DNA of 32,000 bases from Candidatus Electrothrix sp. GW3-4 (GTDB lineage: Bacteria > Desulfobacterota > Desulfobulbia > Desulfobulbales > Desulfobulbaceae), in the NCBI RefSeq assembly GCF_037902255.1, contig NZ_CP147990.1, positions 2,640,001 through 2,672,000 on the forward strand, in the 5' to 3' direction. The first letter of the stretch is position 1. Each line of letters begins with the position of its first letter. The position numbers and the translations under genes were made by a program. Shown piece after piece: positions 3,691 to 25,224 of the stretch. The notes below the pieces were generated by a model, which did no database searches, had not been told where the DNA came from, and saw only the letters and a program-made list of their open reading frames with translations.

Positions 3691-5700
3691 TCACCAATCC
3701 ACCCGCAGGGTGTTATCCAGGGCGACAACCTTGCTAATACGGATCTTAACGGTATCACCAGGTTCCACAGGAAAGGAGGGATGAGCTGCCAGATCAATAT
3801 CAAACAGGCAGTCCAGCAAGAGCAGACTGACCCGTTTAGGACCGTGACTGACCACCAGAGCTGAGACCCTTTTACCAACCAGATCTTCTAAATAGCGGAG
3901 AACCCAATAGCGATGCCGCTGCTGCCGAACCTTATTGGCCCGGCCCAATTTCTGCTGAATCGTCCCGGCAAAATTCTTACATATATCTGCGGAAAAGAGC
4001 ATGCCGCGTCCGTGAATCAGGTGTGAGATCTGGAGCTGCATGGCCGTATCGAGAAAACGACGAATGGGTGAGGTGATGGTAGTATAACAGTTCAGGCCCA
4101 GGCCGGAATGAGGTTTGGGATGGACGGTCAGCTCTCCCCGGGCCAGAAAACGGCGCTGGCAGGCGATATCCTGGAGGCTGTTCTGCACCCCAGAGATCAG
4201 GCGTTTTCGGGGAGGAGGCTGGGAACGAAACAGGCCCGGTGCCTCCTGAGCCGCAAGATAATCGGCAGCTACCCCGTTGGCCAGGATCATACACTCGGAA
4301 ACCAGATTCCGGGACGGGCTGTCAGAGGGACTGAGATGAATAGAGACCTTACCCTGATTACTGACATAGATATTCACATCTGGAAAAGAGAGGAGCAGAG
4401 CCCCGCGTTCAACCCGCTTCAGGCGCAGCTGCTGACGGACCCGGTTAAGCAGACTCAGATCCGGGTCGGTTTCCATCATTTTATCCGTCTCAGTATAACT
4501 GAGCTGGCGTTTCACCTGAATAACACTGGGGACAATCCTGCTGTTCCTGATCTCACCTTGCGGCGAGATCTTGACCAAAAAACTGACCGCTGGTCGCACC
4601 CTGTCCTTAATCAGACTGAACACGCCCTGAGAGAGTTCTCTGGGCATCATAGGGATCTGCCCTTCGGGGAAATAAAGCGAGGTGGCCCGCTCCATGCCTT
4701 CCAAAAACAGAGGGTCCTTGGGGGTAAGAAAATAGCTAACATCTGAGATATGAATCCCGACCAGGACATCACCGTTTTCAAGCTCTTCCACATGCAGGGC
4801 ATCGTCATAATCACGGGTGGAAGCCCCGTCAATGGTCAGGGTATTCAGATCGCGGAAATCCTTGCGCTTGGGATCGGCTAATAATTCTTCCGCAGTAGGC
4901 TCTTTGATGCTTTCAGCATGAGCCATCAGTTCCGGGCTGAATTCCACGGGCTGTTCTGCCTGGAGTAGGGGGAGATTCTCATCTCTTTCCCAGACACCAG
5001 CCCGGACCAACAGATAATAGGCCTGGTTAGGCTGATGCAGCTCTGCCTTTTTCAGGAGTTGACGGACCACATCGGCCTGTTCTGCCTCGCTGCCAAACAG
5101 GACAAAATCGGCAATCCAAGCAAGGATTCGCTCCCGATCCGGCCATTGCTCCGCTGTCACCTGCTCCCCTTGCATAATGGTCTGCAAATGCGCCGCACCA
5201 GTGGTCAGGATTGCCTCTTTTTCCTTTTCCTTCTGCCGCTGATGGCGCAGCTGCTCTACCTGTTCTGGGGTATGAACATTAACCATCTCGTTTTTATATT
5301 TAAAGAAAAAACGATCGGTAAACACGGCCCGAAGAAAGGCGGCCGACTGATCATCGGTGAGATTTTCACCAAAGGAGAGTTCGGCAAGGAAGTCTGCCGG
5401 AAATGCGGTTTCTTGTTCTTCACTGGCCAGCTCCCAGATCTCTTCCAGCGGGATAGCGTTGGTCAGCGCTGCCCGTATCGCTGCCATCTCCTTAAGCAGG
5501 GCTATACGATCGTCACGGCTGGTACTGATTTGATGTTTCGTTTTGGAGGCTGTAACCACACGGGAGGTGGGGAGGTTCATTTCACGCCCGTTCTGATTGA
5601 GCAGACGCAGGCGATTATTGCTGTCCTGTAACACAAGACCGCAGATAAAACGCCCGCTGTCAAGATATTCGATAATAGTTCCGGGAGGTGTCATTGTCAT
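3691..5700 (-). CDS. RNase II/RNase R family 3'-5' exoribonuclease (RNB domain, C-terminal S1-like)
   Basis: Contains the RNB motifs [17 protein letters not shown] and [21 protein letters not shown]. Start chosen at [12 protein letters not shown] (ATG 5700); the track ORF extends to 5778. Confidence 0.85.
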
Positions 5701-12564: not shown

Positions 12565-13659
12565 ATGCAGCAGATAGCAGATAAAATCACAGCCGGAGAG
12601 CGCATCTCCGGCGCGGAATTCCTCCTCCTTGCCGATAAGGCCGACCTCTACCAACTGGGTTTTATGGCAAATGCCGTGCGCAAGCGCCTCCACCCAGAAC
12701 CGGTGGTCACCTATGTCATTGACCGTAATATCAACTACACCGATATCTGCATCTCAGCCTGTACGTTCTGCGCTTTTTATAAAGCCCCGGAGGACCCGAA
12801 TGGCACGGTCCTGAGTAAAGAGGAGTTGCTGCACAAGATCCACGAGACCCAGGAACTGGGCGGCACCCAGATCCTCCTTCAGGGCGGTCTCCACCCGGAT
12901 CTGCCCCTGGAGTTCTACGAGGACATGCTCCGCTTCATAAAGGCAACCGGCATTCATATCCACGGCTTTTCCCCGCCAGAGGTCTGTCATTTTGCGGAGC
13001 TTTCAGGCCTGTCCGTTCAGGCGGTGCTGGAGCAACTCATGGCCGCTGGTCTGGATTCCATCCCCGGTGGCGGGGCTGAGATCCTCTCCGACCGGGTCCG
13101 GGAACAGCTGGCCCCGCGCAAATGCTCGGCCGATGAGTGGATTGCGGTCATGGAAACGGCCCATACCCTGGGGATGCGCACCACAGCCACCATGATGTTC
13201 GGCCATATCGAGACCTGGGAGGAACGGCTGGAGCATCTTCAGCGCCTGCGTGATCTCCAGGACCGCACCAGCGGCTTTACCGCCTTTATCCCCTGGCCCT
13301 TCCAGCCCGACAACACTGCCCTGGCCGAGGCCATCCACAAAGACCAGGGCATGGAAAAGGCATCCGCCTTTGCCTATCTGCGTATGCTGGCCCTGAGCCG
13401 CATCTTTCTCGATAACTTTGCCAATGTGCAGGCTTCCTGGGTCACCCAGGGCCCGAAGATAGCCCAGCTCTCCCTCTTTTTCGGGGCCAATGATTTTGGT
13501 TCCACCATGATTGAGGAGAACGTGGTCGCAGCAGCAGGGGTTCATTTCCGCCTCTCTGAACAGGAGATCCGGCACCTGGTCACTGATGCGGGCTTCACTC
13601 CGCAACAACGGCTCATGGACTACACCCCGGTTAGGCAGGAAGCAGAGCAGGAGCAGTGA
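12565..13659 (+). CDS. radical-SAM menaquinone biosynthesis enzyme of the futalosine pathway (MqnE aminofutalosine synthase or MqnC; MqnE favoured by the adjacent deaminase)
   Basis: 364 aa. Radical-SAM cluster motif NYTDICISACTFCAFY (CxxxCxxC). GGTQILLQGG, DSIPGGGAEI and MMFGHIE blocks are typical of the MqnC/MqnE/CofH family. Confidence 0.8.
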   Translation: MQQIADKITAGERISGAEFLLLADKADLYQLGFMANAVRKRLHPEPVVTYVIDRNINYTDICISACTFCAFYKAPEDPNGTVLSKEELLHKIHETQELGGTQILLQGGLHPDLPLEFYEDMLRFIKATGIHIHGFSPPEVCHFAELSGLSVQAVLEQLMAAGLDSIPGGGAEILSDRVREQLAPRKCSADEWIAVMETAHTLGMRTTATMMFGHIETWEERLEHLQRLRDLQDRTSGFTAFIPWPFQPDNTALAEAIHKDQGMEKASAFAYLRMLALSRIFLDNFANVQASWVTQGPKIAQLSLFFGANDFGSTMIEENVVAAAGVHFRLSEQEIRHLVTDAGFTPQQRLMDYTPVRQEAEQEQ

Positions 13660-14882
13660 CAGACCGGCTGATAATCCACCGCGCTCCCTGGTTGCTCCCC
13701 ATAAGCCATCCACCTATCGCCGACGGTGGGCTTGCAGTGCAGGCCGGGAAAATTATCGGGGTCGGCAGATTCCAGGAGATCCTTCGCAGCCATCCCGGAG
13801 CGACAATCCTTGAGCACCCTGAGACCGTGCTCATGCCCGGTCTGGTCAATGCCCATACCCATCTGGAACTCTCCCACCTGGCCTATCTTACCCAGGGGCC
13901 TGCCCTTGCCAGCTTTACCGGCTGGATCGGCCATATGCTGGCGGAGCGAGCCAAGATAGATGCGGATAAGAAGACCATCCTGGCCGCAGCCCGTGCCGTG
14001 CTTGCCCAGCAGCAGGCCCAGGGCGTGGTCGCCCTGGCTGATATCTCCAACACCGGCTTGATCCAGGAGCTGGCCCCGGAATTCCCAGGACATCTCCTCT
14101 GCCTCAAGGAATATCTCGGCCTGCGAGCAGCCGGGCTTGCCGCCTCCCTGCACAACCTAGAGAGGGAGCAAGAAACGCTGTCCTGTACCGCCCATGCGCC
14201 CTACTCCACCCATCTTGACCTCTTGCAGGCCCTGAAGCAACGAGCTGCGGCGACAAAACAGGTGTTCTCCATCCATGTTGCCGAGTCCCTTGCTGAGCAT
14301 GATCTTATCAGCCAGGGTAAGGGAGCAATGCGCCACTTCCTGGAAGAGCGAGGCTTCTGGGATGGGAGTTTTCAACCCACAGGGAAGAAAAGCAAGGGGG
14401 CTTTCTCCTACCTCCATCAGCACGGTCTGCTTGACAGCCAGACCCTTTGTGTACATGGTATCCAGGTGACGGAGCAGGAGATAGAGCTGCTTGCGGAAAG
14501 CGGGGCAAAGGTCTGCCTCTGTCCGGGGAGCAATCGCTATCTCGGGGTGGGCAGGGCCCCGGTGGCGGACTACCTGCGCAAGGACATCCTGCCTGCCCTG
14601 GGCACGGACAGTCTGACCAGTAATCCCCAGCTCTCCATCTGGCGGGAGATGCGCCTGTTGGCAGAAGAGCATCCCGCTGTTGAGCCAGCAGATATTCTGC
14701 GCATGGCGACCTTGGGCGGGGCTGCTGCCCTGGGCCTGGACAAACAGCTGGGATCCCTGGATGCGGGAAAGGAGGCGGCAATTCTGGCTGTTCAGCTGAC
14801 CGAACCTATTAAGATGCCTTTTTCTTTGGCGGAATATCTGGTATATCACAACATATCCGTTTCTTCATTTACCTTGAACTGA
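13656..14882 (+). CDS. amidohydrolase-superfamily deaminase (aminodeoxyfutalosine deaminase-like / chlorohydrolase family)
   Basis: 408 aa. Metal-binding LMPGLVNAHTHLELS, plus later HVAES and GTDS motifs. The GTG start overlaps the upstream stop (GTGA at 13656-13659). Confidence 0.75.
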   Translation: MTDRLIIHRAPWLLPISHPPIADGGLAVQAGKIIGVGRFQEILRSHPGATILEHPETVLMPGLVNAHTHLELSHLAYLTQGPALASFTGWIGHMLAERAKIDADKKTILAAARAVLAQQQAQGVVALADISNTGLIQELAPEFPGHLLCLKEYLGLRAAGLAASLHNLEREQETLSCTAHAPYSTHLDLLQALKQRAAATKQVFSIHVAESLAEHDLISQGKGAMRHFLEERGFWDGSFQPTGKKSKGAFSYLHQHGLLDSQTLCVHGIQVTEQEIELLAESGAKVCLCPGSNRYLGVGRAPVADYLRKDILPALGTDSLTSNPQLSIWREMRLLAEEHPAVEPADILRMATLGGAAALGLDKQLGSLDAGKEAAILAVQLTEPIKMPFSLAEYLVYHNISVSSFTLN

Positions 14883-14934: not shown

Positions 14935-16737
14935 ATGAAATTCCCCTATGGTATCGTTGACTTTCGTAAGATCCGCCGTGAATCCTATTTCTACTGTGAC
15001 CGAACCGACAAGATCCCCCTCCTGGAGGAGATCAGCAACCAGCTCTTTATCCGTCCCCGCAGATTCGGCAAAAGCCTGCTCCTCTCCATGCTGGAGAATT
15101 ATTACGATATCCTGCGCAAGGATGAGTTTGATCAGCTCTTTGGTGAGCTCACCATTGGCACGGCACCAACGCCTCTCCGTAATTCCTATCTGATCCTGCG
15201 CTTTGATTTTTCCTGCGTTGATGCCAGTGGCGATGCCCAGGCCATGAAAAAATCCCTGGACGGTCATATCAGCAGCTGCATTGAAGGATTTGCCATGCGG
15301 TATCAGGACATAGGATTAGCGGAAATCAGCATCGATGCAAACGATGCCCTGCGCAGTCTTGAATCCCTGGTGCATGCCGTGGCCCATGCTGGCCAGCAGA
15401 TCTATCTCTTTATTGACGAATACGATAATTTTGCCAACGAGGTCATGATAAGCGCGCAGACAGCGGATGATCGCTACGCTGCCCTGGTTCATGAGGCCGG
15501 GCCGTTGAAGACCCTGTTCAAGACCCTTAAGGCCTTGACCTCATCATCAGTTATTGACCGGATGTTCCTCACCGGCGTGTCCCCCATCGTGCTCAGTGAC
15601 ATCACCAGTGGCTATAATATTGCCGCAGATATCTATCTGGAACCGGAGTTCAACGACCTCTGCGGCTTTCGGGAAGAAGAACTGGGCAAAGCGCTGACCG
15701 AAATCGCCCGGCAATGCGAGTATGAACCAGAAAAGGCCCAAGAGGCCATAGAGATGGCCCGAACCTGGTATAAGGGCTATATGTTCACAGCCACGAAGGG
15801 CGAACAGGTCTATAATCCAACCTTGAGCCTCTATTTTTTGCAGCAGTTCCAAAAGAGCGGCTCTTTCCCCCGTAATATGCTGGATGCCAACCTGGCCACC
15901 AACGAGAGCAAACTCACCTACATCGCCCAGCTCCCTGAGGGGAGACAGCTCCTCATGGACCTTGCCCGCCAGGAGCACCAAGTCCTGATTCCCGATGTGA
16001 GCAAACGCTTTGGCATTCAGGAGATGTTGAGTAAGGCCTCCAAGGACCAAACCTTTCTGGCTTCCTTCCTCTACTATTTCGGCGTCCTGACCATAGGCGG
16101 AGAAAGCGAGGACCTGCATCTGATCCTGCAGGTTCCTAACCTGGTCGTCCAAGGCATGTATGTAGACCGCATCCGCCAGATGCTCCTGCCGGAACCAGAG
16201 GAACGGGATCAGGGGCGGACTGCGGCCCGTTTGGTCTCTCAGCAAGGGGAGATGCAACCCCTGTGCGATTTCATGGAACAGCATTATTTCCAGGTCTTCC
16301 ATAACCGAGATTATCGTGGGGCCAATGAGCTGACGATCAAGACGGCCTTTCTCACCCTCCTCTATAATGACCTGATCTATGTCATGGACTCTGAGCCGGA
16401 GCTTGAGCGGCGCTATGCAGACCTCTGCATGCTTATCCGTCCTGACAGACGGCATGGCAAGGTCTTTGACATCCTGATAGCGTTCGAATTCGTCCCCCTG
16501 CACCAGATCGGGCTGAGCGAAGAAAAGGCACGGACCTTGTCGCCAGCGGCCCTTCGTGTCTTGCCAGCCATAAAACAGGCGCTTCAGAATGCAGCGGAAC
16601 AGGTCGAGCAATACGGTGATATCCTGGAACAGAAATACGATAAGCTCCGCCTGCAACGCTTTGCCGTGGTTTCTCTCGGATTTGAACGACTGGTGTTTAA
16701 AAAAATGGAGGGGGCCCAGGCCCAGATACCATCATGA
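14935..16737 (+). CDS. AAA-ATPase_like (PF09820-type) N-domain fused to a PD-(D/E)XK nuclease-like (PDDEXK_9-type) C-domain; function unknown
   Basis: 600 aa. N-terminus MKFPYGIVDFRKIRRESYFYCDRTDKIPLLEE...FIRPRRFGKSLLLSMLENYYD and FIDEYDNF are hallmarks of this family. The C-terminus carries DSEPELERRYADLCMLIRP...FDILIAFEFV. SD AAAGAGG lies 7 nt upstream. The stop overlaps the mqnA ATG (ATGA at 16734-16737). Confidence 0.8.
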   Translation: MKFPYGIVDFRKIRRESYFYCDRTDKIPLLEEISNQLFIRPRRFGKSLLLSMLENYYDILRKDEFDQLFGELTIGTAPTPLRNSYLILRFDFSCVDASGDAQAMKKSLDGHISSCIEGFAMRYQDIGLAEISIDANDALRSLESLVHAVAHAGQQIYLFIDEYDNFANEVMISAQTADDRYAALVHEAGPLKTLFKTLKALTSSSVIDRMFLTGVSPIVLSDITSGYNIAADIYLEPEFNDLCGFREEELGKALTEIARQCEYEPEKAQEAIEMARTWYKGYMFTATKGEQVYNPTLSLYFLQQFQKSGSFPRNMLDANLATNESKLTYIAQLPEGRQLLMDLARQEHQVLIPDVSKRFGIQEMLSKASKDQTFLASFLYYFGVLTIGGESEDLHLILQVPNLVVQGMYVDRIRQMLLPEPEERDQGRTAARLVSQQGEMQPLCDFMEQHYFQVFHNRDYRGANELTIKTAFLTLLYNDLIYVMDSEPELERRYADLCMLIRPDRRHGKVFDILIAFEFVPLHQIGLSEEKARTLSPAALRVLPAIKQALQNAAEQVEQYGDILEQKYDKLRLQRFAVVSLGFERLVFKKMEGAQAQIPS

Positions 16738-17567
16738 TACGCTTGGGCATGGTGAATTACATCAACACCGCTCCAATCTATGAGGTCTGGAAGGAGCAGG
16801 TGCAGCGCCCGGACTGGCCTGTGACCGAGGCCCCGCCTACCCGGCTCAATCAACTGCTGGCAGCTGGCGAGCTGGACCTGGGTTTTGTCTCCTGCTACGA
16901 GTATGCAGCCCGGCCAGAGCAGTATCAAATCATGGCCGATCTCTCTATCTCCGCCACCGGGCCGGTGGGCAGCGTGTTTATGTTCTCCACCATCCCACCG
17001 GAGGAGCTGGATGGCAAGCCGGTGCTCATGACCGGCCAGTCGGACACCTCGGTCTGGCTGCTGCGAATTATCCTGGAGGATTTTTTCGAGGTCAAACCGG
17101 ACTATATCCGAGGCGAGATCTTTGCTCAGCGCAGTCCAGAGAAAGAGGAACCCGCAGCTGTGCTCGCCATCGGTGATGAGGCCCTGCGGTTGGCAACCAA
17201 GGAAAACTCGCCCTTTCCTGTCCAGATCGATCTGGCAGAATTCTGGCACCAGCAGACCGGCCTGCCCTTTGTCTTTTCCATCTGCGCCGTGCGGGAGGAG
17301 TTCCTCACCACCGCAGAGGAGGCAGCACGGGAACTCCATCAGACCCTGCTCTCCTGCCGTGACCAGGGCGGGAAACGTCTGGCAGAAATCGCTGCACGGG
17401 TGGCCCCTCGTATCCCCATGGACCCGGCCGCCTGTCTCAGCTATCTCCAGGCCATGGAATACGATCTCGGCCCGGCAAAAAGAGAGGCCCTGGAGGCCTT
17501 CTTCAGCCGTCTGATTCGGCACGGGGCAGCATCTGCCAAGGCCCTGCCCTTAAAAATCTTCTCATGA
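16734..17567 (+). CDS. mqnA: MqnA-family protein (chorismate dehydratase; PF02621 MqnA/MqnD family)
   Basis: 277 aa. N-terminus MIRLGMVNYINTAPIY...LLAAGELDLGFVSCYEYA is typical of the periplasmic-binding-fold MqnA/MqnD family. Context is the futalosine cluster. Confidence 0.75.
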   Translation: MIRLGMVNYINTAPIYEVWKEQVQRPDWPVTEAPPTRLNQLLAAGELDLGFVSCYEYAARPEQYQIMADLSISATGPVGSVFMFSTIPPEELDGKPVLMTGQSDTSVWLLRIILEDFFEVKPDYIRGEIFAQRSPEKEEPAAVLAIGDEALRLATKENSPFPVQIDLAEFWHQQTGLPFVFSICAVREEFLTTAEEAARELHQTLLSCRDQGGKRLAEIAARVAPRIPMDPAACLSYLQAMEYDLGPAKREALEAFFSRLIRHGAASAKALPLKIFS

Positions 17568-17610
17568 TCTACAGATCCTGCTGACTTTGCCTCCCCTCTC
17601 TGATCTCTGC

Positions 17611-18324
17611 ATGCCCACGGCCTCTCATGAAACAAAAAAGGAGTATGTGCGCCAGACCTTTGCCTCTATCAGCCATCGCTATGATTTCCTCAACGGCCTG
17701 CTCTCCCTGTTGTTCGACCGCTGTTGGCGCTGGCACATCGTCCGCCTGCTCGCGGATCTCCCGGAAGGCCCGGTGCTGGATCTCTGCGCAGGAACCTTAT
17801 CCCTGTCCAGGGAGATAGCCCGGCAGAACCCGAATCGGCACATCTATGCCCTGGACTTCTGCGAGAATATGCTCAGGGCTGGGGTGCAAAAACTCCAGGA
17901 CGATCCCCACAGTTCCAGAATCTCTCCTCTCTGCGGAGATGGAGAGGCCATTCCGACTCTCGGGGATATCTTTTGTGGTTGTACCGTGGCCTTTGGGATG
18001 CGAAACCTTATCAATCGCCAACAATGCCTGGCAGAGATCCACCGGGTTCTCCGCCCCGAGGGCAGGCTGCTGATCCTGGAGTTCTCCCGTCCAACCAACA
18101 GGTTGTTCAAACCGATCTACCGCTGCTATCTCCATCATATCATGCCCTGCATCGCCGGAGTCTGCGCAGAAAACCGAGAAGCATACAAATATCTTGCCCA
18201 ATCCATTGCTTTGTTTTATGAACCAAAGGAGCTCCTTGCCATGATGCGGGCGGCAGGCTTCACCCAGGTGGAGCGCAGGCAGCTGACCTTGGGGATTGTT
18301 TCAATCTATGTAGGAAAAAAGTAG
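17611..18324 (+). CDS. ubiE: demethylmenaquinone/ubiquinone C-methyltransferase (UbiE/MenG)
   Basis: ETKKEYVRQTFASISHRYDFLNGLLSL..., SAM motif VLDLCAGT, and LRPEGRLLILEFS. ATG 17611 is preferred over the TTG at 17587 used by the track. Confidence 0.9.
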   Translation: MPTASHETKKEYVRQTFASISHRYDFLNGLLSLLFDRCWRWHIVRLLADLPEGPVLDLCAGTLSLSREIARQNPNRHIYALDFCENMLRAGVQKLQDDPHSSRISPLCGDGEAIPTLGDIFCGCTVAFGMRNLINRQQCLAEIHRVLRPEGRLLILEFSRPTNRLFKPIYRCYLHHIMPCIAGVCAENREAYKYLAQSIALFYEPKELLAMMRAAGFTQVERRQLTLGIVSIYVGKK

Positions 18325-18354
18325 GCGGGCAATTACGGAAAAAAAGGACAGGTC

Positions 18355-20887
18355 ATGAGCGAACTTCCTGACAACGGACTCAATATCAGCAGACCGGTTG
18401 CTCTCTGGAACCGGGAGATCAAGGCGGAACCGCGCAAGCTCCTGCTCGGCATCGGCAAGATGCTGGTGGAAGGGGCAATGCTGGATTTCAGCGACGCTGC
18501 CAGTGCTGCTCTGGATACCTTAGACGCGGCGGGCCTGCGAAAGAACCCCGGCGAACTGGCTTGGCTGCTGATCTATCGCGCTCTGTCCGCCGCCTTGGTC
18601 GAGCTGGTAAAGAATTACGTTGATCTGTTCCGCAATCCGCCGAAAGAGGATGAGTTGGATAATATTTCCAGCCAGTTTGAACAGGCAATGGCAGAGGCGA
18701 ATGTCACTATTACCCTGAATTTCTTTGACCGGCCCGGTGACCTTTCCCTGCTCAGGAATCTGCACTCCCCCTTGACCGACTGGCTGCAAGGACTCGGAGC
18801 GACAAGCGCAGATGCAGAACAGATTGCCTGCCGTCTGCCGGATTATTTTATTTTTACCCTGCACCAGACCTGGCGCAAGGCCCCACAAGATTACGCCGCC
18901 CTGACCCAATATTTTGACAGCCCGTTCACCGAGGCGACAGAAGAGCTGCGGAACTGGCAGCTCTACGCCCAGCACCTGCAACGGCAGGTCAGCGACCGGA
19001 TGTTTGCCGAGGCATTTGGCGTGGATAAGGTCTATGTGCCGCTGCGGGCCTATTACGAGGAAAAGGAGCAGGGAGACGAGCGCGGGCAGGCTCTGGAACT
19101 GCAACGGGACCAGGTCAAGCGGATCGTGGTGGATCTGGAAGCCAAGTTCCGCAGCTGGGTAAATAACTTCAGGAAAGAAACCGCTGTCCGCTTCATCAGC
19201 GGTGGGCCGGGGTCAGGCAAGTCCACCTTTGCCAAGATCTTTGCCGCCAAAATCGCCAAGGAAACCGATATCCCCTGCCTGTACATTCCTCTCCATCTCT
19301 TTGCTGCCACGGACAACCTGATCCCGGCAATGGAGAACCATATCCGTAACAATCCGTTCCTGTCCGGCAATCCGCTGGATGCCAAGACAGGCAAAGACCG
19401 CCTGCTCATTATCTTTGATGGCCTGGACGAACTGGCTTTGCAGGGCAAGGCCGCCTCGGAGGTGGCCAACTCTTTTGTTGATGAGGTGCTGCGTCGCATT
19501 CTGGAGGGCAACAGTTTTGGCAACCAACGGCAGGTCATCATCACCGGGCGCACCATTGCTGTGCAGTCCGTGGCAACCAAACTGCGTGAAGCCAAGCAAA
19601 TCAGCTCTGTGCTGCCCTATTTTGTCGAGGAAGAGGAACGGAAAGAATTTCATGACCCGGACGAACTGCTGGCCGAGGATCAGCGGCAGATCTGGTGGCG
19701 GCAATACGGCGAGGCTGCGGGCAAAGACTATGCGGGCCTGCCTGCGGAGCTGGATCGCAAACATCTTGCCGAGATCACGGCCCAGCCCCTGCTCAATTAC
19801 TTGGTTGCCCTCAGCTATGACGGCAAGACCTTCACCTTTACCGACGAAACCACCCTGAATCAGATCTATGCCCACCTTATCAAGAAAGTGTACTGCCGTC
19901 AGTACGAAGAGGGCGGTCGGATCAGTGCTTGCGCCGGTGATTTGCAGGAGAGCGAGTTTCTTCGAGTGCTGGAGGAAATCGCCTTGGCTGTCTGGCACGG
20001 GGATGGGCGCACCGCCACGGTTTCGAGTATTCAAGAAAAATTCAAGGCAGGCGGAAAACCGCCAGGAAGGTGATCCTACCTTTGAGTTCACCCATAAGAG
20101 CTTTGGGGAGTACCTGACCGCCCTGCGGATTATCCGCCTCTTGCGCCAGATGCAGAAGCAGCGCAGGCGGAGGCAGGAAGACCCGGATGATGGGTGGTCG
20201 GAAAAGGAGGCCTTGCGGCATTGGACTTCCTTTTGTGCGATCACATATATGGATGAAGACCTTCTGCGTTTCATCAGCAATGAATTCCAAACTATGACGC
20301 AGGAGAATCTACTTGCCTTACAGTCTATGGTTCGTAACTTGTTGAGCTACACTATCAATCAGGGTCTGCCCTTTCCTGATGAATTTCTTGGCAAAGGTTT
20401 TAAGGAGCATCTGCGCTTGGCCCGGAATGCAGAAGAGGCCTTGCTGGCTGTGCATTTTTACATTGCGGAGCTGACCAAGCAGGTTTCAAGATTGGAGTTG
20501 GCATCAGATATAGCCTTCGGGAATTGGATTTCTCGGGTGAGGGGGATGCATGCCTATCCAAGCTGGTTAGGGCACTTGGATTTATCCGGCTATGATCTTT
20601 CGGCCCAGAATTTTATTGCGGCAAACTTTGCCATGTCTCATTTTAATAAAGCAAACTTGTCTTATTCAATTTTTCTACTCGCAAACTTGAGAGGGGTGAA
20701 GCTGGAAAAGGCGCGACTTATAAGAGCTAATTTGATAGGTGCAAACCTTGTAGGAGCCAATTTCAAGGGTGCAAACCTTAGTTTGGCTGATTTGCGAGGT
20801 GCAAAGCTGGAAGTGGCAAATTTGGATGGAGCCAATTTAGATGGTGCCATTTTCACAGGCACCATTCTGGAAAACAAGGATTCGTAG
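18355..20887 (+). pseudogene. NACHT/STAND P-loop NTPase with C-terminal pentapeptide-repeat domain, split into two overlapping ORFs by a +1 frameshift (18355..20073 frame 1; homology resumes in frame 2 at about 20072 and runs to 20887)
   Basis: Walker A ISGGPGSGKST (19201-19227). Walker B LLIIFDGLDEL (19402-19431). The NACHT-type block TFEFTHKSFGEYLTA is readable only in frame 2, just after the frame-1 TGA (20071-20073). About 19 pentapeptide units occur at 20573-20860 (ANLIGANLVGANFKGANLSLADLRGAKLEVANLDGANLDGAIF). The N-terminal ~270 aa are helical with no effector domain I recognise. An AAGGA SD lies 8 nt upstream, and the gene starts 30 nt after menG. Confidence 0.75.
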
Positions 20888-20930
20888 GGACACGGCGTGC
20901 CGTGCCCGGTGTTGAAACACCGGGCTATTA
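20884..20930 (+). terminator. REP-like GTAG hairpin plus a second perfect hairpin immediately after the NACHT-PPR stop (possible terminator; weak T-tract)
   Basis: GTAG-GGACACGGCGTGCCGTGCCC (imperfect palindrome, 20884-20907) overlaps GCCCGGTGTT-ga-AACACCGGGC (perfect 10-bp stem, 20904-20925), which is followed by TATTATC. Confidence 0.4.
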
Positions 20931-20982
20931 TCGGCAGTCCCTCCGGGACGCTGTGCATCTTTTGATGCAGGGCCTGCCGGGT

Positions 20983-21276
20983 AGAAGAGGAATGCTCTGG
21001 AAAGCGGGACAATCCGCCTTCGGGGCCGGAGAAACCCCACCTCTTCGGGAAAATAACCCGATGGAACAGGGCAAAAAGCCCCTGCATCGGGCAGAAATGG
21101 TCTTGGAGCGGGAGAAGGCCAGCCTGAAGCAGGCAGAAATGCTTCTGAAGTGGTATAAAACGACGCTGCAGGAGGAGAAAGTGGTTCTGGAGCGGTAAAA
21201 ATGCTTCTGTAACGGGAGAAAATGCGTTTGCAGCAGGAAAAAACGGCTCTGTAGTGGGAGAAAATTATTCTGCAGT
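20983..21276 (+). repeat. degenerate tandem array with 21-nt period: 9 clear units (21088-21276) and about 5 weaker upstream units
   Basis: Units read off the sequence: CGGGCAGAAATGGTCTTGGAG / CGGGAGAAGGCCAGCCTGAAG / CAGGCAGAAATGCTTCTGAAG / TGGTATAAAACGACGCTGCAG / GAGGAGAAAGTGGTTCTGGAG / CGGTAAAAATGCTTCTGTAAC / GGGAGAAAATGCGTTTGCAGC / AGGAAAAAACGGCTCTGTAGT / GGGAGAAAATTATTCTGCAGT. The consensus is roughly GGGAGAAAATGnTTCTGnAG. A 1-nt register slip occurs near 21193. Confidence 0.8.
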
Positions 21277-21361
21277 ACGTTTCTCTGATTTCCCCCCGGT
21301 CCGGAACGATTTTTATCTGCTCGCGACGGAAAAATTCAGCTAATTAACCGAATAGCAACCT

Positions 21362-22570
21362 ATGAAACAACCAGACATCCTCTCCCAAATAGCTCTCGGC
21401 GAAGACAGCACCCGGCAGTTCAAAGCGGATGTAAAAAACGTCGAATCCTTGGCCGCAGAGATGGCCGCTTTTGCCAACACCAACGGCGGCACCATCTTTA
21501 TCGGCGTGGCCGATGACGGCTCCACTCCCGGACTTTCGCAAAAGGATGTGAGCCGAATCAACCAGCTGATCAGCAATGCCGCCAGCCAAGGCGTTCGCAG
21601 TCCGCTGACTGTGGAAACCGAAAATCTGGCTTTGGAAAACAGTCGTCTTGTGATCGTGCTGCGGGTTCCCAAGGGAATCGACAAGCCCTATTTTGACAAG
21701 AACGGCATCATCTGGCTCAAAACAGGCTCAGATAAACGCCGGGTCAACTCCAAGGAGGAACTGCGCAGATTATTTCAGATTACTTCCCAGTTTCATGCCG
21801 ACGAACTCCCCACCAAAGCAGGCATCGACAAAGTAGACAAGCTCCGTTTCCGGGATTTCCTCCGGGATGTCTACGAAATCGAATACCCTGATTCCATCGA
21901 AAAACGAACCCGCCTGCTGCAAAATATGAATCTGACCACCGATGACGGAAACCTCAATCTGGGTGGATTGCTGATGTTTGGCGAACAACCGGAATTAATC
22001 ATGCCTCAATTTGTGGTCAAGGGCATCCGCTATCCCGGCAATGAAATTCACGCCTCAGACTACATGGACACCGAGGATTTTGTCGGCCCCCTGCCAAAGA
22101 TCTTCGCCGATGTCCTGGCCTTTATCATGCGCAATCTCCACAAAGTACAGGCCGGGCGGGGGGTGAATTCTCCAGGCATACCAGAGGTGCCCAAAACAGT
22201 CTTTGAAGAATTACTGGTCAATGCCCTGGTCCATCGAGATTATTTAGTCAGCGCGGCCATCCGGGTGTTTATCTATGACAACCGCATTGAAATCATCAGC
22301 CCAGGTCACCTGCCCAATAATCTGACCGTGGAAAAAATCCGTGCGGGCAACGCCAATATCCGCAATCCCATCCTGGTTTCCTACGCCGCCAAAGGGTTAC
22401 TGCCGTATCATGGCTTAGGCTCCGGCATCAAACGGGCCCTTTCCGCATGGTCAGATATTGAATTTCAGGATGATCATGAGGGCTGCCTGTTTACCGCAAT
22501 AATCTATCGGAAGCCATTAGAAGAGCTCAACGGGTCAAACGCAACCCAAATGAAGCAGGAAAAAAAATGA
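21362..22570 (+). CDS. AlbA_2 (Schlafen-like, divergent-AAA) domain protein with C-terminal HATPase_c_4 / RecG-C-like domain; putative nucleic-acid-binding regulator or ATPase
   Basis: 402 aa. N-terminus GEDSTRQFKADVKNVESLAAEMAAFANTNGGTIFIGVADDGSTPGL is the AlbA_2 signature. C-terminus FEELLVNALVHRDYLVSAAIRVFIYDNRIEIISPGHLPNNLTVEKIRAGNANIRNPIL is HATPase_c_4-like. The stop overlaps the ubiX ATG (ATGA at 22567-22570). No obvious SD. Confidence 0.85.
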   Translation: MKQPDILSQIALGEDSTRQFKADVKNVESLAAEMAAFANTNGGTIFIGVADDGSTPGLSQKDVSRINQLISNAASQGVRSPLTVETENLALENSRLVIVLRVPKGIDKPYFDKNGIIWLKTGSDKRRVNSKEELRRLFQITSQFHADELPTKAGIDKVDKLRFRDFLRDVYEIEYPDSIEKRTRLLQNMNLTTDDGNLNLGGLLMFGEQPELIMPQFVVKGIRYPGNEIHASDYMDTEDFVGPLPKIFADVLAFIMRNLHKVQAGRGVNSPGIPEVPKTVFEELLVNALVHRDYLVSAAIRVFIYDNRIEIISPGHLPNNLTVEKIRAGNANIRNPILVSYAAKGLLPYHGLGSGIKRALSAWSDIEFQDDHEGCLFTAIIYRKPLEELNGSNATQMKQEKK

Positions 22571-23154
22571 CCAACATGACAAATGGAAGCCCCCACCCAC
22601 AACGCCTCATCCTTGCCATCACCGGGGCCACCGGCATGCTCTATGTCACCGCCCTGCTCGACTTGCTCGCGGACCAGGACCTGGAGGTGGATGCAATCAT
22701 CTCCGATTCCGGCAAGAAGGTCCTCCGCCTGGAGCAGGACCTGACCCCGGAAGACCTGCCCGGTGTCAGCCGCTGGTTTGCTGCGGGCGACTTCACGGCC
22801 CCGCCCGCCTCGGGCTCGGCCCGTTACGAGGCCATGATCATCCTCCCCTGCACCGTGGGTACCCTGGGTGCCCTTGCCAGCGGTTTTTCCGGCAACCTGA
22901 TCCACCGGGCTGCGGACGTCACCCTCAAGGAACGACGCCCCCTGATCCTGGCGGTGCGCGAGACCCCGCTCAACCGCACCCATCTCCACAATATGCTGAC
23001 CCTCCATGATGCCGGGGCCACCATCTGCCCGCCCATGCCCTCTTTTTATCTCCACCCCCCTGACCTCCAGGTCATGGCCCGCCAGTTCGCCAGCCGCATC
23101 TGCGACCAAATTGGCCTCCATCTACAAGGAATGCCGCGCTGGCAGGGCGTTTGA
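22567..23154 (+). CDS. ubiX: UbiX-family flavin prenyltransferase (likely partner of the late futalosine-pathway decarboxylation step)
   Basis: 195 aa. RLILAITGATGMLY..., PCTVGTLGALASGFSGNLIHRAADVTLKERRPLILAVRETPL and LHDAGATICPPMPSFY are typical UbiX/Pad1 blocks. Confidence 0.9.
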   Translation: MTNMTNGSPHPQRLILAITGATGMLYVTALLDLLADQDLEVDAIISDSGKKVLRLEQDLTPEDLPGVSRWFAAGDFTAPPASGSARYEAMIILPCTVGTLGALASGFSGNLIHRAADVTLKERRPLILAVRETPLNRTHLHNMLTLHDAGATICPPMPSFYLHPPDLQVMARQFASRICDQIGLHLQGMPRWQGV

Positions 23155-23283
23155 GCTTGCCAGCACAGGTTATGTCCTGTTAGAATCCTGGCATAATCCA
23201 GCAGAAAGCAAGACCGAGACGACTTGCCGCAAGATATTGCATCTTACAGCAGGTCACGGAAACCAAAAAACAGGGAGAGGGCT

Positions 23284-24189
23284 ATGCGTTGGCAGGGAAG
23301 ACGAAAGAGCGAGAATATCGAAGACCGACGCAATATGCGGGTCTCCGGGGCAGGTGGCTTTGGTAACAACAGCAGCATGTTGCGCCTGCTGCCAATGGCG
23401 GTCAAATTCCTCGGCTTTAAGGGGACGGTTATCGCGGTCCTCTGCCTGGGTGCTTACGGTTTGTTTTCCGGGAATCTCGGGAGCATGTTGGCCCTCCTGG
23501 GACTCCAGCAAGGCCCATCCATCAGCACCTCCAGGGGACCAGTTCAAGAGACTGGGGCAGAAAAGGAGCTGGTTGATTTTATCTCCGTAATTCTCGCTGA
23601 TACCGAAACAACCTGGTCTGCCCTGTTCCAGCAAAAGGGAAAGGCCTACCAGGAGCCTCATCTGGTCCTCTTTCGCGATGCGGTGAAATCTGCCTGCGGC
23701 CTGGCCCAATCTGCCACTGGCCCCTTCTACTGTCCCGGTGACCAACAGGTCTATATCGACCTTTCCTTTTTCGACGAACTGAAAAATCGTTTCAAGGCAC
23801 CAGGCGACTTTGCCCAGGCCTATGTTATCACCCATGAGATCGGCCACCATGTGCAAAAACTGCTCGGCATCTCGGACAAGGTCCATTCGGCCCGGAAAAA
23901 AGTCGGCAAAAGGGAAAGCAACCAGCTTTCGGTCTTGCAGGAGCTCCAGGCCGACTGTTTTGCCGGTGTCTGGGCCTATCATAATCAGGACATGCTGGAA
24001 GCAGGAGATGTGGAAGAGGGCCTTGCTGCGGCCAGTGCCATTGGTGACGATCGCTTACAAAAACAGGCCAAAGGATATGTCAGCCCGGACTCCTTTACCC
24101 ACGGCAGTTCAGCCCAGCGGGTCCAGTGGTTCAAAACCGGTCTGACCAGCGGCAGGATGGAGAGCTGCAACACCTTCAGGAAGAACTAG
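23284..24189 (+). CDS. ypfJ: YpfJ-family putative neutral zinc metallopeptidase
   Basis: MRWQGRRKSENIEDRR N-terminus, one TM segment, and a HEIGHH zinc motif (ITHEIGHHVQ). Start moved to ATG 23284, which has a GGGAGAGGG SD. Confidence 0.85.
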   Translation: MRWQGRRKSENIEDRRNMRVSGAGGFGNNSSMLRLLPMAVKFLGFKGTVIAVLCLGAYGLFSGNLGSMLALLGLQQGPSISTSRGPVQETGAEKELVDFISVILADTETTWSALFQQKGKAYQEPHLVLFRDAVKSACGLAQSATGPFYCPGDQQVYIDLSFFDELKNRFKAPGDFAQAYVITHEIGHHVQKLLGISDKVHSARKKVGKRESNQLSVLQELQADCFAGVWAYHNQDMLEAGDVEEGLAAASAIGDDRLQKQAKGYVSPDSFTHGSSAQRVQWFKTGLTSGRMESCNTFRKN

Positions 24190-24408
24190 CTGCGCCTCAG
24201 AGCTGTATATCTCCACAAAGCAGCATCAGCCCGTTGCTCTGTTGCTCTTTGCTTGCTGCTCTTTAATTCTTCTTGCAAGGATACCGAAGTTTGCTATAGT
24301 TCGCCGCTCATATATTATGGAGCGGTTGAACTCCCCCCCAAGGGAGAGAAACTACTCTCATCAGCTCCGGTTATTCGCAGCAAAACGCTAACCCCAGGTT
24401 ATTCTCCT

Positions 24409-25224
24409 ATGACCATATCCTCAACAGAGACAGAACAACAAAAACAACAGCACGGCGCCCTTACCGTGGTCGGCACCGGACCCGGTGCTGAAGACCTCAT
24501 AACACCTCGTGCCCGCCAGGCCATTGAACAAGCCGAGGTGGTGGTGGGCTATAAGACCTATCTTGACCTCATCCGCCCCTGCATCTCGGCGGAACAGGAA
24601 GTGCTTTCCTCGGCCATGATGCAGGAAATCGACCGCTGCCGCCGGGCCCTGGAGCTCGCTGACAGCGGCAAGGCCGTGGTTCTGGTCTGCGGCGGGGATC
24701 CGGGCATCTACGCCATGGCTGGCCTGGTCTATGAACTGGTTCAGGACACGGGCAGTACCAGCAAAATTGAGATCATCCCCGGCATTGCTGCCCTCAATGC
24801 CTGTGCCGCCGTTCTGGGCGCGCCCCTGATGCATGATTTCGCGGCCATCAGCCTCTCTGACCTCATGACTCCCTGGGAGCTCATTGAAAAACGGCTTCAA
24901 GCAGCAGCAATGGCTGATTTTGTCACGGTGATCTATAATCCAAAATCGAAAAAAAGGGCCGAACAGATTGTTCGGGCTCAGGAAATCATGCTGGAACACC
25001 GCGACCCGCAGACCCCTGTGGGGATTGTTTCTGGGGCCAGCCGCGAGCATGAGTCGGTCTGCCTGACCACCCTGGGAGCAATGTTAGACCAAGAAATCGG
25101 GATGCAAACCACTGTCATCATCGGTAACGCTGCTACCTTTATCTTTGGTGACAAGATGGTCACTCCACGTGGATATTCGGCCAAGTACAGCCTTGATGAT
25201 AAAAAGGACAAAAAAGGAAGATAG
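24409..25224 (+). CDS. cbiH: precorrin-3B / cobalt-factor III C17-methyltransferase (CobJ/CbiH)
   Basis: LTVVGTGPGAEDLITPRARQAIEQAEVVVGYKTYLDLI, VVLVCGGDPGIYAMAG and DFAAISLSDLMTPWE match the tetrapyrrole methylase fold of CbiH type. Start set at ATG 24409 (MTISSTE); the track TTG start at 24253 is unlikely. Confidence 0.85.
   Translation: MTISSTETEQQKQQHGALTVVGTGPGAEDLITPRARQAIEQAEVVVGYKTYLDLIRPCISAEQEVLSSAMMQEIDRCRRALELADSGKAVVLVCGGDPGIYAMAGLVYELVQDTGSTSKIEIIPGIAALNACAAVLGAPLMHDFAAISLSDLMTPWELIEKRLQAAAMADFVTVIYNPKSKKRAEQIVRAQEIMLEHRDPQTPVGIVSGASREHESVCLTTLGAMLDQEIGMQTTVIIGNAATFIFGDKMVTPRGYSAKYSLDDKKDKKGR

Follow-up and report, generated by a model that had tools for sequence, protein, structure and literature searches.

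A defence-island-like hotspot in the futalosine menaquinone operon of Candidatus Electrothrix probably holds two independent single-gene modules

Why should two genes of menaquinone synthesis be held apart by several kilobases of genes unrelated to quinones? The question is raised by the marine cable bacterium Candidatus Electrothrix sp. GW3-4, in a 32,000-nt stretch of whose genome (contig NZ_CP147990.1, positions 2,640,001 to 2,672,000; hereafter the window, whose coordinates we use throughout) menG and ubiX are separated by 4.2 kb. On the plus strand, the block between them comprises a gene for an NNH3-NACHT-pentapeptide protein that is spread over two frames (18355-20887), an intergenic gap of 475 nt (20888-21361), and a gene for a protein with AlbA_2 and HATPase_c_4 domains (21362-22570). 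An earlier reading of the letters alone (the sequence-only reading) had proposed that these genes were wedged into the operon and might form a two-gene defence or regulatory module. Our comparisons support the wedge and not the pair: the block is probably part of a defence-island-like hotspot in the futalosine menaquinone operon of Electrothrix, occupied here by two independent single-gene modules of known type.

Matches to Pfam and TIGR models confirmed the limits of the block. The left flank is menG/ubiE, encoding demethylmenaquinone methyltransferase (17587-18324, plus strand; PF01209, E 3e-54; TIGR01934, 212.6 bits against a cutoff of 158), and the right flank is the flavin prenyltransferase gene ubiX (22567-23154, plus strand; PF02441; TIGR00421, 186 bits against 108.9). 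The mqn gene set begins upstream with mqnC (12565-13659, plus strand; TIGR03699, 492 bits against a cutoff of 428). When we scanned species-representative genomes with an alignment of MenG, 70 loci emerged, with 61 informative loci from non-cable Desulfobulbales. All 61 had the gene order mqnC-amidohydrolase-mqnA-menG-ubiX, with a gap between menG and ubiX of -25 to 324 nt (median 11 nt); a spacing of 4.3-8.9 kb was found in Electrothrix loci only. The sequence-only reading would have been refuted if menG and ubiX adjoined nowhere, but they adjoin in 61 of 61 outgroup loci and stand kilobases apart only in Electrothrix. The block is therefore a derived, lineage-specific insertion into a contiguous junction. 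The hotspot would thus have opened at the ancestral menG-ubiX junction in the marine cable bacteria of Candidatus Electrothrix.

We compared the cargo of this slot across Electrothrix. In E. scaldis (locus L001), the NACHT-pentapeptide gene is accompanied by a PIN/Phd pair and a MazE/PIN pair, and there is no AlbA_2 gene. Electrothrix Rat3 (L003) carries NACHT, two small open reading frames (ORFs), PIN, AlbA_2 and Phd, and E. laxa (L006) carries NACHT, toxin-antitoxin genes, and only a C-terminal remnant of AlbA_2 that abuts ubiX. The E. communis slot (L075) reads mqnA-NACHT, AlbA_2 66 nt further on, MazE, a HATPase_c_4 fragment, pta-ackA and ubiX. The slot of E. aarhusensis (L067) holds no NACHT gene; a STAND protein of 1686 amino acids (aa) is followed there by PIN, AlbA_2 and toxin-antitoxin genes. 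A metagenome-assembled Electrothrix genome (L005) has an APH-type kinase gene after menG.

The STAND protein of Ca. Electrothrix aarhusensis (L067, 6535-11595) was identified by PADLOC as Avs4 (PDLC02169, E 8.9e-181, covering almost all 1570 positions of the model), and its gene lies directly downstream of menG, the position taken by the NACHT-pentapeptide gene in sister species. Because an uncharacterised STAND gene alternates with a bona fide Avs4 at one slot, with toxin-antitoxin genes alongside, the slot has the character of a defence-island-type hotspot. The clustering of defence-type genes suggested by the sequence-only reading is supported by this Avs4 and by the PIN, MazE and Phd pairs of other Electrothrix species. 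Like known defence islands, the slot has variable cargo between fixed flanks, brings STAND, toxin-antitoxin and restriction-modification (R-M)-derived genes together, and has alternative occupants in sister species. It differs from them in lying inside a biosynthetic operon, co-oriented with that operon, and in having no integrase, tRNA or flanking repeats. The ORF list, Pfam and a repeat search agreed with the sequence-only reading that neither an integrase nor a transposase is present between 18325 and 22570, and no direct or inverted repeats that might be insertion scars were found around the island.

Two of these loci had further features of their own. The E. communis island (L075, 6432-17491) has mqnA followed by the NACHT gene without an intervening menG, and pta-ackA separates the island from ubiX; the minus strand of the same locus bears a c-di-GMP-I-GGC riboswitch at 5586-5664 (RF03167, 59 bits). 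The gene after menG in L005 (5403-6488) encodes an APH/EcKL-type kinase with a weak match to TCAD9 (ternary-complex-associated domain) and is followed by a DUF5714 protein gene on the opposite strand.

The domains that the sequence-only reading had assigned to the two proteins (NACHT, pentapeptide repeats, AlbA_2 and HATPase_c_4) were all recovered by Pfam above gathering score. The 5' part of the NACHT gene is a 572-aa ORF that runs to a premature stop (18355-20073, plus strand), with NNH3 at about 18430-19020 (PF22735, E 1e-39) and NACHT at about 19192-19629 (PF05729, E 3.8e-10, 40.3 bits against a cutoff of 26.7). Its Walker A motif reads GGPGSGKST and its Walker B motif LLIIFDGLDE. The 572-aa product has 100% identity to a GW3-4 protein (P0022). 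The 3' remnant continues in the +1 frame (20057-20887, plus strand) with FEFTHKSFGEYL, a helical linker, and pentapeptide repeats at about 20567-20863 (PF00805, E 1.5e-21); the repeats cover about 98 aa, or about 19-20 units, in the same frame as FEFTHKSFGEYL, and a repeat search found periods of 15 and 30 nt in this region. Intact orthologues of 865-911 aa carry NNH3, NACHT and pentapeptide repeats in one protein. An AlphaFold2 model of the 572-aa product had a predicted local distance difference test score (pLDDT) of 80.7, and its top match in the PDB was NLRP3 (7pzc, E 1.5e-5); NNH3 modelled alone was all-alpha (pLDDT 81).

This architecture fits a protein of the bacterial NLR-related (bNACHT) kind, by analogy with which anti-phage activity of the NNH3-NACHT-pentapeptide family is putative. 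NNH domains were defined, and pentapeptide repeats listed among the superstructure-forming C-terminal sensors of bNACHT proteins, by Kibby et al. (bioRxiv 10.1101/2022.07.19.500537). The family shares with bNACHT proteins a central NACHT with Walker A and B motifs, an N-terminal NNH, and a C-terminal repeat sensor that forms a superstructure, all in a single polypeptide, and it is likewise enriched in multicellular bacteria (cable bacteria, Nostoc, Microcoleus). It differs in that it matches no model of PADLOC-DB v2.0.0, Avs included, in that it is inherited with unusual stability across two genera, and in that the window copy is a pseudogene. Avs4 resembles the window gene in being a STAND NTPase sensor and in its position, since E. 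aarhusensis has it in that very slot behind menG; however, that Avs4 is an AAA_16/nSTAND3 protein of 1686 aa with no NACHT match, and the window gene has no detectable similarity to Avs.

By analogy with bNACHT and Avs proteins, an intact orthologue would act as a one-protein, ATP-dependent sensor and switch. A trigger would be bound by the pentapeptide beta-helix, NACHT would exchange nucleotide and oligomerise, and the clustered N-terminal helical domains would then act. The gene lies co-directionally right behind a housekeeping gene, be it menG, mqnA, ddl or hcp, with a gap of -4 to 35 nt to the upstream gene in five contexts. Because it is co-directional, has a near-zero gap and has no predicted promoter, it is probably transcribed by read-through from those housekeeping genes.

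The second gene of the block (21362-22570, plus strand) encodes a protein with a Schlafen (SLFN)/AlbA_2 domain at about 21401-21748 (PF04326, E 4.6e-20) and a GHKL ATPase domain, HATPase_c_4, at about 22256-22456 (PF13749, E 4.2e-12). Its stop codon overlaps the ubiX start (ATGA). The pair of SLFN and GHKL ATPase domains has been named Schlatpase; more than 90% of the stand-alone proteins end in a helix-turn-helix (HTH), and Schlatpase modules have been exchanged among prokaryotic Argonaute (pAgo), NACHT and type I R-M systems (bioRxiv 10.64898/2026.05.29.728809). In PADLOC, residues 24-319 of the window protein aligned, as a partial match, with the SLFN-GHKL region of a pAgo model. The GHKL N-box (E283-LLV-N287) and a SAFAN-like box (A35-AFAN39) are invariant in our alignment, as judged by eye against the residues given in the preprint. 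An exact-sequence look-up of the window protein matched no record.

Relatives with 77-82% identity occur in many phyla. They are 464-482 aa long and bear an additional C-terminal winged HTH; in the alignment the Electrothrix proteins stop at about residue 390-404, and the relatives run about 70 aa further with HTH_24/MarR_2. Both relatives whose context was examined (P0138 and P0146) lie inside or beside type I R-M clusters, one of them in the order hsdM-x-hsdS-x-AlbA_2-hsdR in Magnetovirga. Identity between Electrothrix species is 93-95%. The gene has a synonymous divergence (dS 0.36-0.67) similar to that of ubiX next to it and a ratio of nonsynonymous to synonymous divergence (dN/dS) of 0.05-0.075; it has therefore been passed on vertically and under strong constraint. 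Recent horizontal transfer was rejected as an explanation of the high identity, because the dS of the gene equals that of ubiX. The Electrothrix Schlatpase has lost its HTH and has been kept under strong purifying selection.

The Electrothrix protein would then descend from a very conserved family that bears a C-terminal HTH in type I R-M operons, the HTH having been lost in the Electrothrix lineage. It resembles the SLFN-pAgo protein RzAgo in its PF04326 and PF13749 domains, its AAFAN box and its N-box, and its relatives lie in type I R-M operons as in the preprint (bioRxiv 10.64898/2026.05.29.728809); it differs in having no Argonaute core, no C-terminal HTH, an E-x4-Q-x-K motif, and no adjoining R-M genes, there being no hsd genes near 21362-22570 in the window. 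By analogy with SLFN-pAgo, it may form an oligomer, driven by ATP, that binds nucleic acid and possibly also cleaves it; its nuclease motif, however, has glutamine at a position that should be acidic.

Some features of the HTH-bearing family stood out. Its conservation is unusually high, the 77-82% amino acid identity extending across Desulfobacterota, Gammaproteobacteria, Zixibacteria and others. Its members at L076 (8001-9422) and L078 (8001-9425) lie in or next to type I R-M clusters, that of L076 between hsdS and hsdR, and the gene that precedes them in both loci has a faint or weak match to Y1_Tnp.

If the NACHT and AlbA_2 proteins formed a system, they should occur together. Several loci have NACHT without AlbA_2: Electronema halotolerans (hcp-NACHT-NMT1), Electronema V4 (ddl-NACHT-ychF), Electrothrix YB6, where the NACHT gene is near TatA with no AlbA_2 nearby, and the divergent locus L082, in which mqnA-menG-NACHT is followed by convergent PMT, VKOR, DnaB-like and Era genes. 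A Syntrophorhabdaceae homologue with 53% identity (L162/L163, 8001-18520) likewise has no AlbA_2; its neighbours include a CAP12-PCTIR TIR gene, an ORC/CDC6-like gene, ParE and PIN. Within Electrothrix itself, E. scaldis has NACHT without AlbA_2, and E. aarhusensis has AlbA_2 with Avs4 instead. In metagenomic NACHT-pentapeptide loci, tblastn detected an AlbA_2 neighbour in 0 of 80. Co-occurrence of the two families, once tested, was thus absent outside Electrothrix synteny. We conclude that the pairing is seen only as shared synteny within Electrothrix and that the two genes are probably independent; the evidence speaks against a system.

As a separate observation, the convergent genes downstream of NACHT in L082 (5859-8737, minus strand) include a VKOR-DsbA fusion, a quinone-linked neighbour of the vitamin K epoxide reductase family.

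Several results weigh against reading the slot as a defence-type hotspot with two independent occupants. No mobility genes or target-site repeats were found that would explain the remodelling of the slot. PADLOC gave no defence match at E <= 0.01, whether to Avs1-5 or to other STAND/NLR-like models, for either window ORF, and the intact orthologue P0013 gave only P-loop-level matches (mad8, 0.0056; TRIP13, 0.012). The N-terminal region of about 270 aa, to which the sequence-only reading could assign no effector, is now placed as Pfam NNH3, which had no structural match in the PDB (best E 0.59) and no recognisable effector fold. The nuclease motif of the Schlatpase is E14-DSTR-Q19-F-K21 and not E(x)4(D/E)xK, with Q19 invariant in nine of nine aligned members. 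NACHT and AlbA_2 are adjacent or near one another in at least three Electrothrix species, with a remnant of AlbA_2 in a fourth, so a partnership specific to Electrothrix is possible. Finally, the NACHT-pentapeptide gene, with dN/dS of 0.12-0.21 and about 70% identity kept across both genera of cable bacteria, shows greater stability than is usual for a defence gene, and the anti-phage role of its family is itself putative.

There was also a possibility that the NACHT-pentapeptide gene has no immune role and encodes a conserved cable-bacterial signalling STAND, co-transcribed with housekeeping or quinone genes, that regulates physiology or the multicellular filament. Orthologues with 67-78% identity are present in essentially all of the Electrothrix and Electronema genomes listed, their dN/dS is low, and the gene always follows a housekeeping gene co-directionally. 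The mqnA-menG-NACHT linkage is kept even in the divergent L082, PADLOC returned no match, and NLR-type regulators with non-immune roles are known, for example AfsR. However, the genomic position of the gene shifts among lineages, and GW3-4 and YB6, both complete genomes, carry it in disrupted form. In E. aarhusensis an Avs4 sits in its slot, its usual neighbours are toxin-antitoxin genes, with a TIR gene in Syntrophorhabdaceae, and its architecture is that of a sensor-type bNACHT. On balance we regard a signalling role as unlikely.

The sequence-only reading had favoured a different alternative, a two-gene defence or regulatory system in which the NACHT protein is the sensor and the Schlafen-ATPase its effector or partner. 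The two genes are indeed adjacent or close in GW3-4, E. communis and Rat3, and a remnant of AlbA_2 is left in E. laxa. NNH3 has no recognisable effector fold, SLFN-NACHT fusions exist, and SLFN domains are exchanged between NACHT, pAgo and R-M systems (bioRxiv 10.64898/2026.05.29.728809). The proposal was not borne out by the distribution of the genes, with NACHT lacking AlbA_2 in E. scaldis, two Electronema species, YB6, L082 and the 80 metagenomic loci. In addition, AlbA_2 stands beside Avs4 in E. aarhusensis, its close relatives belong to type I R-M operons, and in GW3-4 the NACHT gene is broken while AlbA_2 has a dN/dS of about 0.06. A dedicated pair is therefore very unlikely, and we return to the NACHT gene as an independent occupant of the slot.

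The break in that gene had been taken for a simple frameshift. Alignment of the protein with 11 homologues showed that it lacks about 28 residues immediately ahead of the FEFTHKSFGEYL block, among them the nearly invariant GVTRLLTAFYFR, and alignment of the DNA with three orthologues showed one clean 86-nt gap. The junction lies between 20053 and 20054 (20050-20057, plus strand). Since 86 does not divide by 3, the deletion shifts the frame, and translation stops at 20073. The lesion is thus an internal, out-of-frame deletion; a repair of the frame by dropping one A from an A5 run, on the supposition of a homopolymer error, was rejected for this reason. A Logan assembly of run SRR28154590, made independently, has the identical sequence over 18340-20544 and thus across the junction, which makes an assembly artefact unlikely. 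That the gene is really intact and its break an error of sequencing or assembly is scarcely credible: short A-runs (20036-20040 and 20056-20059) do lie near the break, and long-read assemblies are prone to homopolymer errors, but what has gone is 86 nt of conserved codons and not a 1-nt indel, and the Logan assembly reads the same.

Judged from its sequence, the NACHT gene in GW3-4 is a pseudogene, dead or crippled. The deletion takes out a nearly invariant winged-helix motif and parts the NTPase from its sensor. It appears to be recent, because the 3' frame is still open and dN/dS in the window lineage is barely raised (0.22-0.30, against 0.18-0.25 for other pairs). A second, independent disruption was seen in Electrothrix sp. 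YB6 (L165, 9001-11537), where the gene is split into ORFs of 686 aa and 158 aa in the context DUF2868/DUF3482 ... TatA.

The gap between the two genes of the block holds further elements, and the hairpin and 21-nt array that the sequence-only reading described there are both real. The 106 nt after the NACHT stop codon fold better than shuffled sequences (z = -4.6). Directly after the stop codon is a 9-bp stem-loop (20888-20907, plus strand), for which an alignment of five Electrothrix species showed 95.6% of cells paired and compensatory changes in 5 of the 9 pairs, far above shuffled and slid controls. Hairpins equivalent to it stand after the NACHT gene both in Electronema and in L082, whose contexts are unrelated, and this argues that the stem-loop is part of the NACHT gene unit. 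Its role is probably that of a 3'-end hairpin, terminator-like or stabilising. Neither a sigma-70-like promoter nor a canonical terminator was predicted on the plus strand of the gap (20887-21362).

A two-hairpin element that matches Acido-Lenti-1 (RF01687 of Rfam) overlaps the 3' end of the stem-loop (20905-20950, plus strand). It covers model positions 1-46 of 46, and its 40.2 bits (E 5.9e-6) exceed the gathering score of 37. The segment is 92-96% conserved in Rat3 and E. laxa, the Rat3 copy scoring 32.6 bits, which is sub-threshold, and at the gathering threshold Rfam did not call the element in five related Electrothrix and Electronema loci. Only these three near-identical Electrothrix copies were seen. 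The match resembles Acido-Lenti-1 in being full-length, two-hairpin and above gathering score; it differs in its setting, here in a Desulfobulbales genome and nested among other hairpins 3' of a gene, whereas Weinberg et al. (2010, PMC2864571) described the motif in Acidobacteria and Lentisphaerae.

The array (21048-21278, plus strand), in the 5' region of AlbA_2, consists of about 11 degenerate 21-nt units in tandem with the consensus GGAGAAAATGCTTCTGNAGCG. Tandem Repeats Finder detected the 21-nt period at 21174-21272, and a repeat search extended the array in register from 21048 to 21275; 3 matches to the unit were counted in the window, where 0.02 would be expected at random. The Rat3 sequence ahead of AlbA_2 is homologous to the array but has fewer units, and the array is not present in E. 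communis or E. aarhusensis. We take it for a degenerate minisatellite, possibly with a regulatory role. Three other identities were considered for it. A dispersed repeat was ruled out, as the sole match among 165 loci was the homologous Rat3 site. For descent from the gene upstream of Schlatpase in R-M operons, tblastx and blastn gave nothing above noise. Coding was unsupported, since several frames are open on both strands, as a 7-codon period predicts, and the Rat3 region has no start codon.

The arrangement of these elements also allows a bolder proposal, which we consider a long shot. The NACHT gene might be a promoterless 'hitch-hiker' cassette, made up of the ORF and its conserved 3' hairpin, that cable bacteria retain in every lineage by placing it right after strongly expressed housekeeping genes (menG, mqnA, ddl, hcp) and that serves as an immune or cell-death sensor for the whole filament; the HTH-less, R-M-derived Schlatpase, coupled to ubiX in translation, might then have been recruited in Electrothrix as a domesticated partner or effector.

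If the hotspot is as we propose, a defence-type hotspot can open inside an essential biosynthetic operon, co-oriented with it, and ubiX has been split from menG genus-wide. The slot offers a natural allelic series at one position: NACHT-pentapeptide, Avs4, the kinase, toxin-antitoxin pairs, and intact versus deleted NACHT. Such a series should be useful for studying the turnover of immune genes in cable bacteria, for which we know of no growth in pure culture. The HTH-less Schlatpase, being under strong constraint, is a candidate for exaptation. Recognition that the two genes are probably independent also keeps a false 'NACHT + Schlafen' system out of catalogues.

Downstream of ubiX, the window continues on the plus strand with a YpfJ-type Zn peptidase gene (23224-24189) and cbiH (24253-25224). 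Upstream, mqnC is followed in the same operon by a gene for an aminofutalosine-deaminase-like amidohydrolase (13656-14882, plus strand), and mqnA (16734-17567, plus strand; PF02621) precedes menG. Between the amidohydrolase gene and mqnA we noticed a second accessory insertion, absent from the sequence-only reading: a gene for a 600-aa protein of the PF09820 (AAA-ATPase_like) family (14935-16737, plus strand; E 1.3e-46). The amidohydrolase gene and mqnA adjoin in outgroup loci. The PF09820 gene is missing in E. scaldis, and other Electrothrix loci have versions that are 77-79% or just 28% identical, which suggests that the mqn operon contains a second hotspot.

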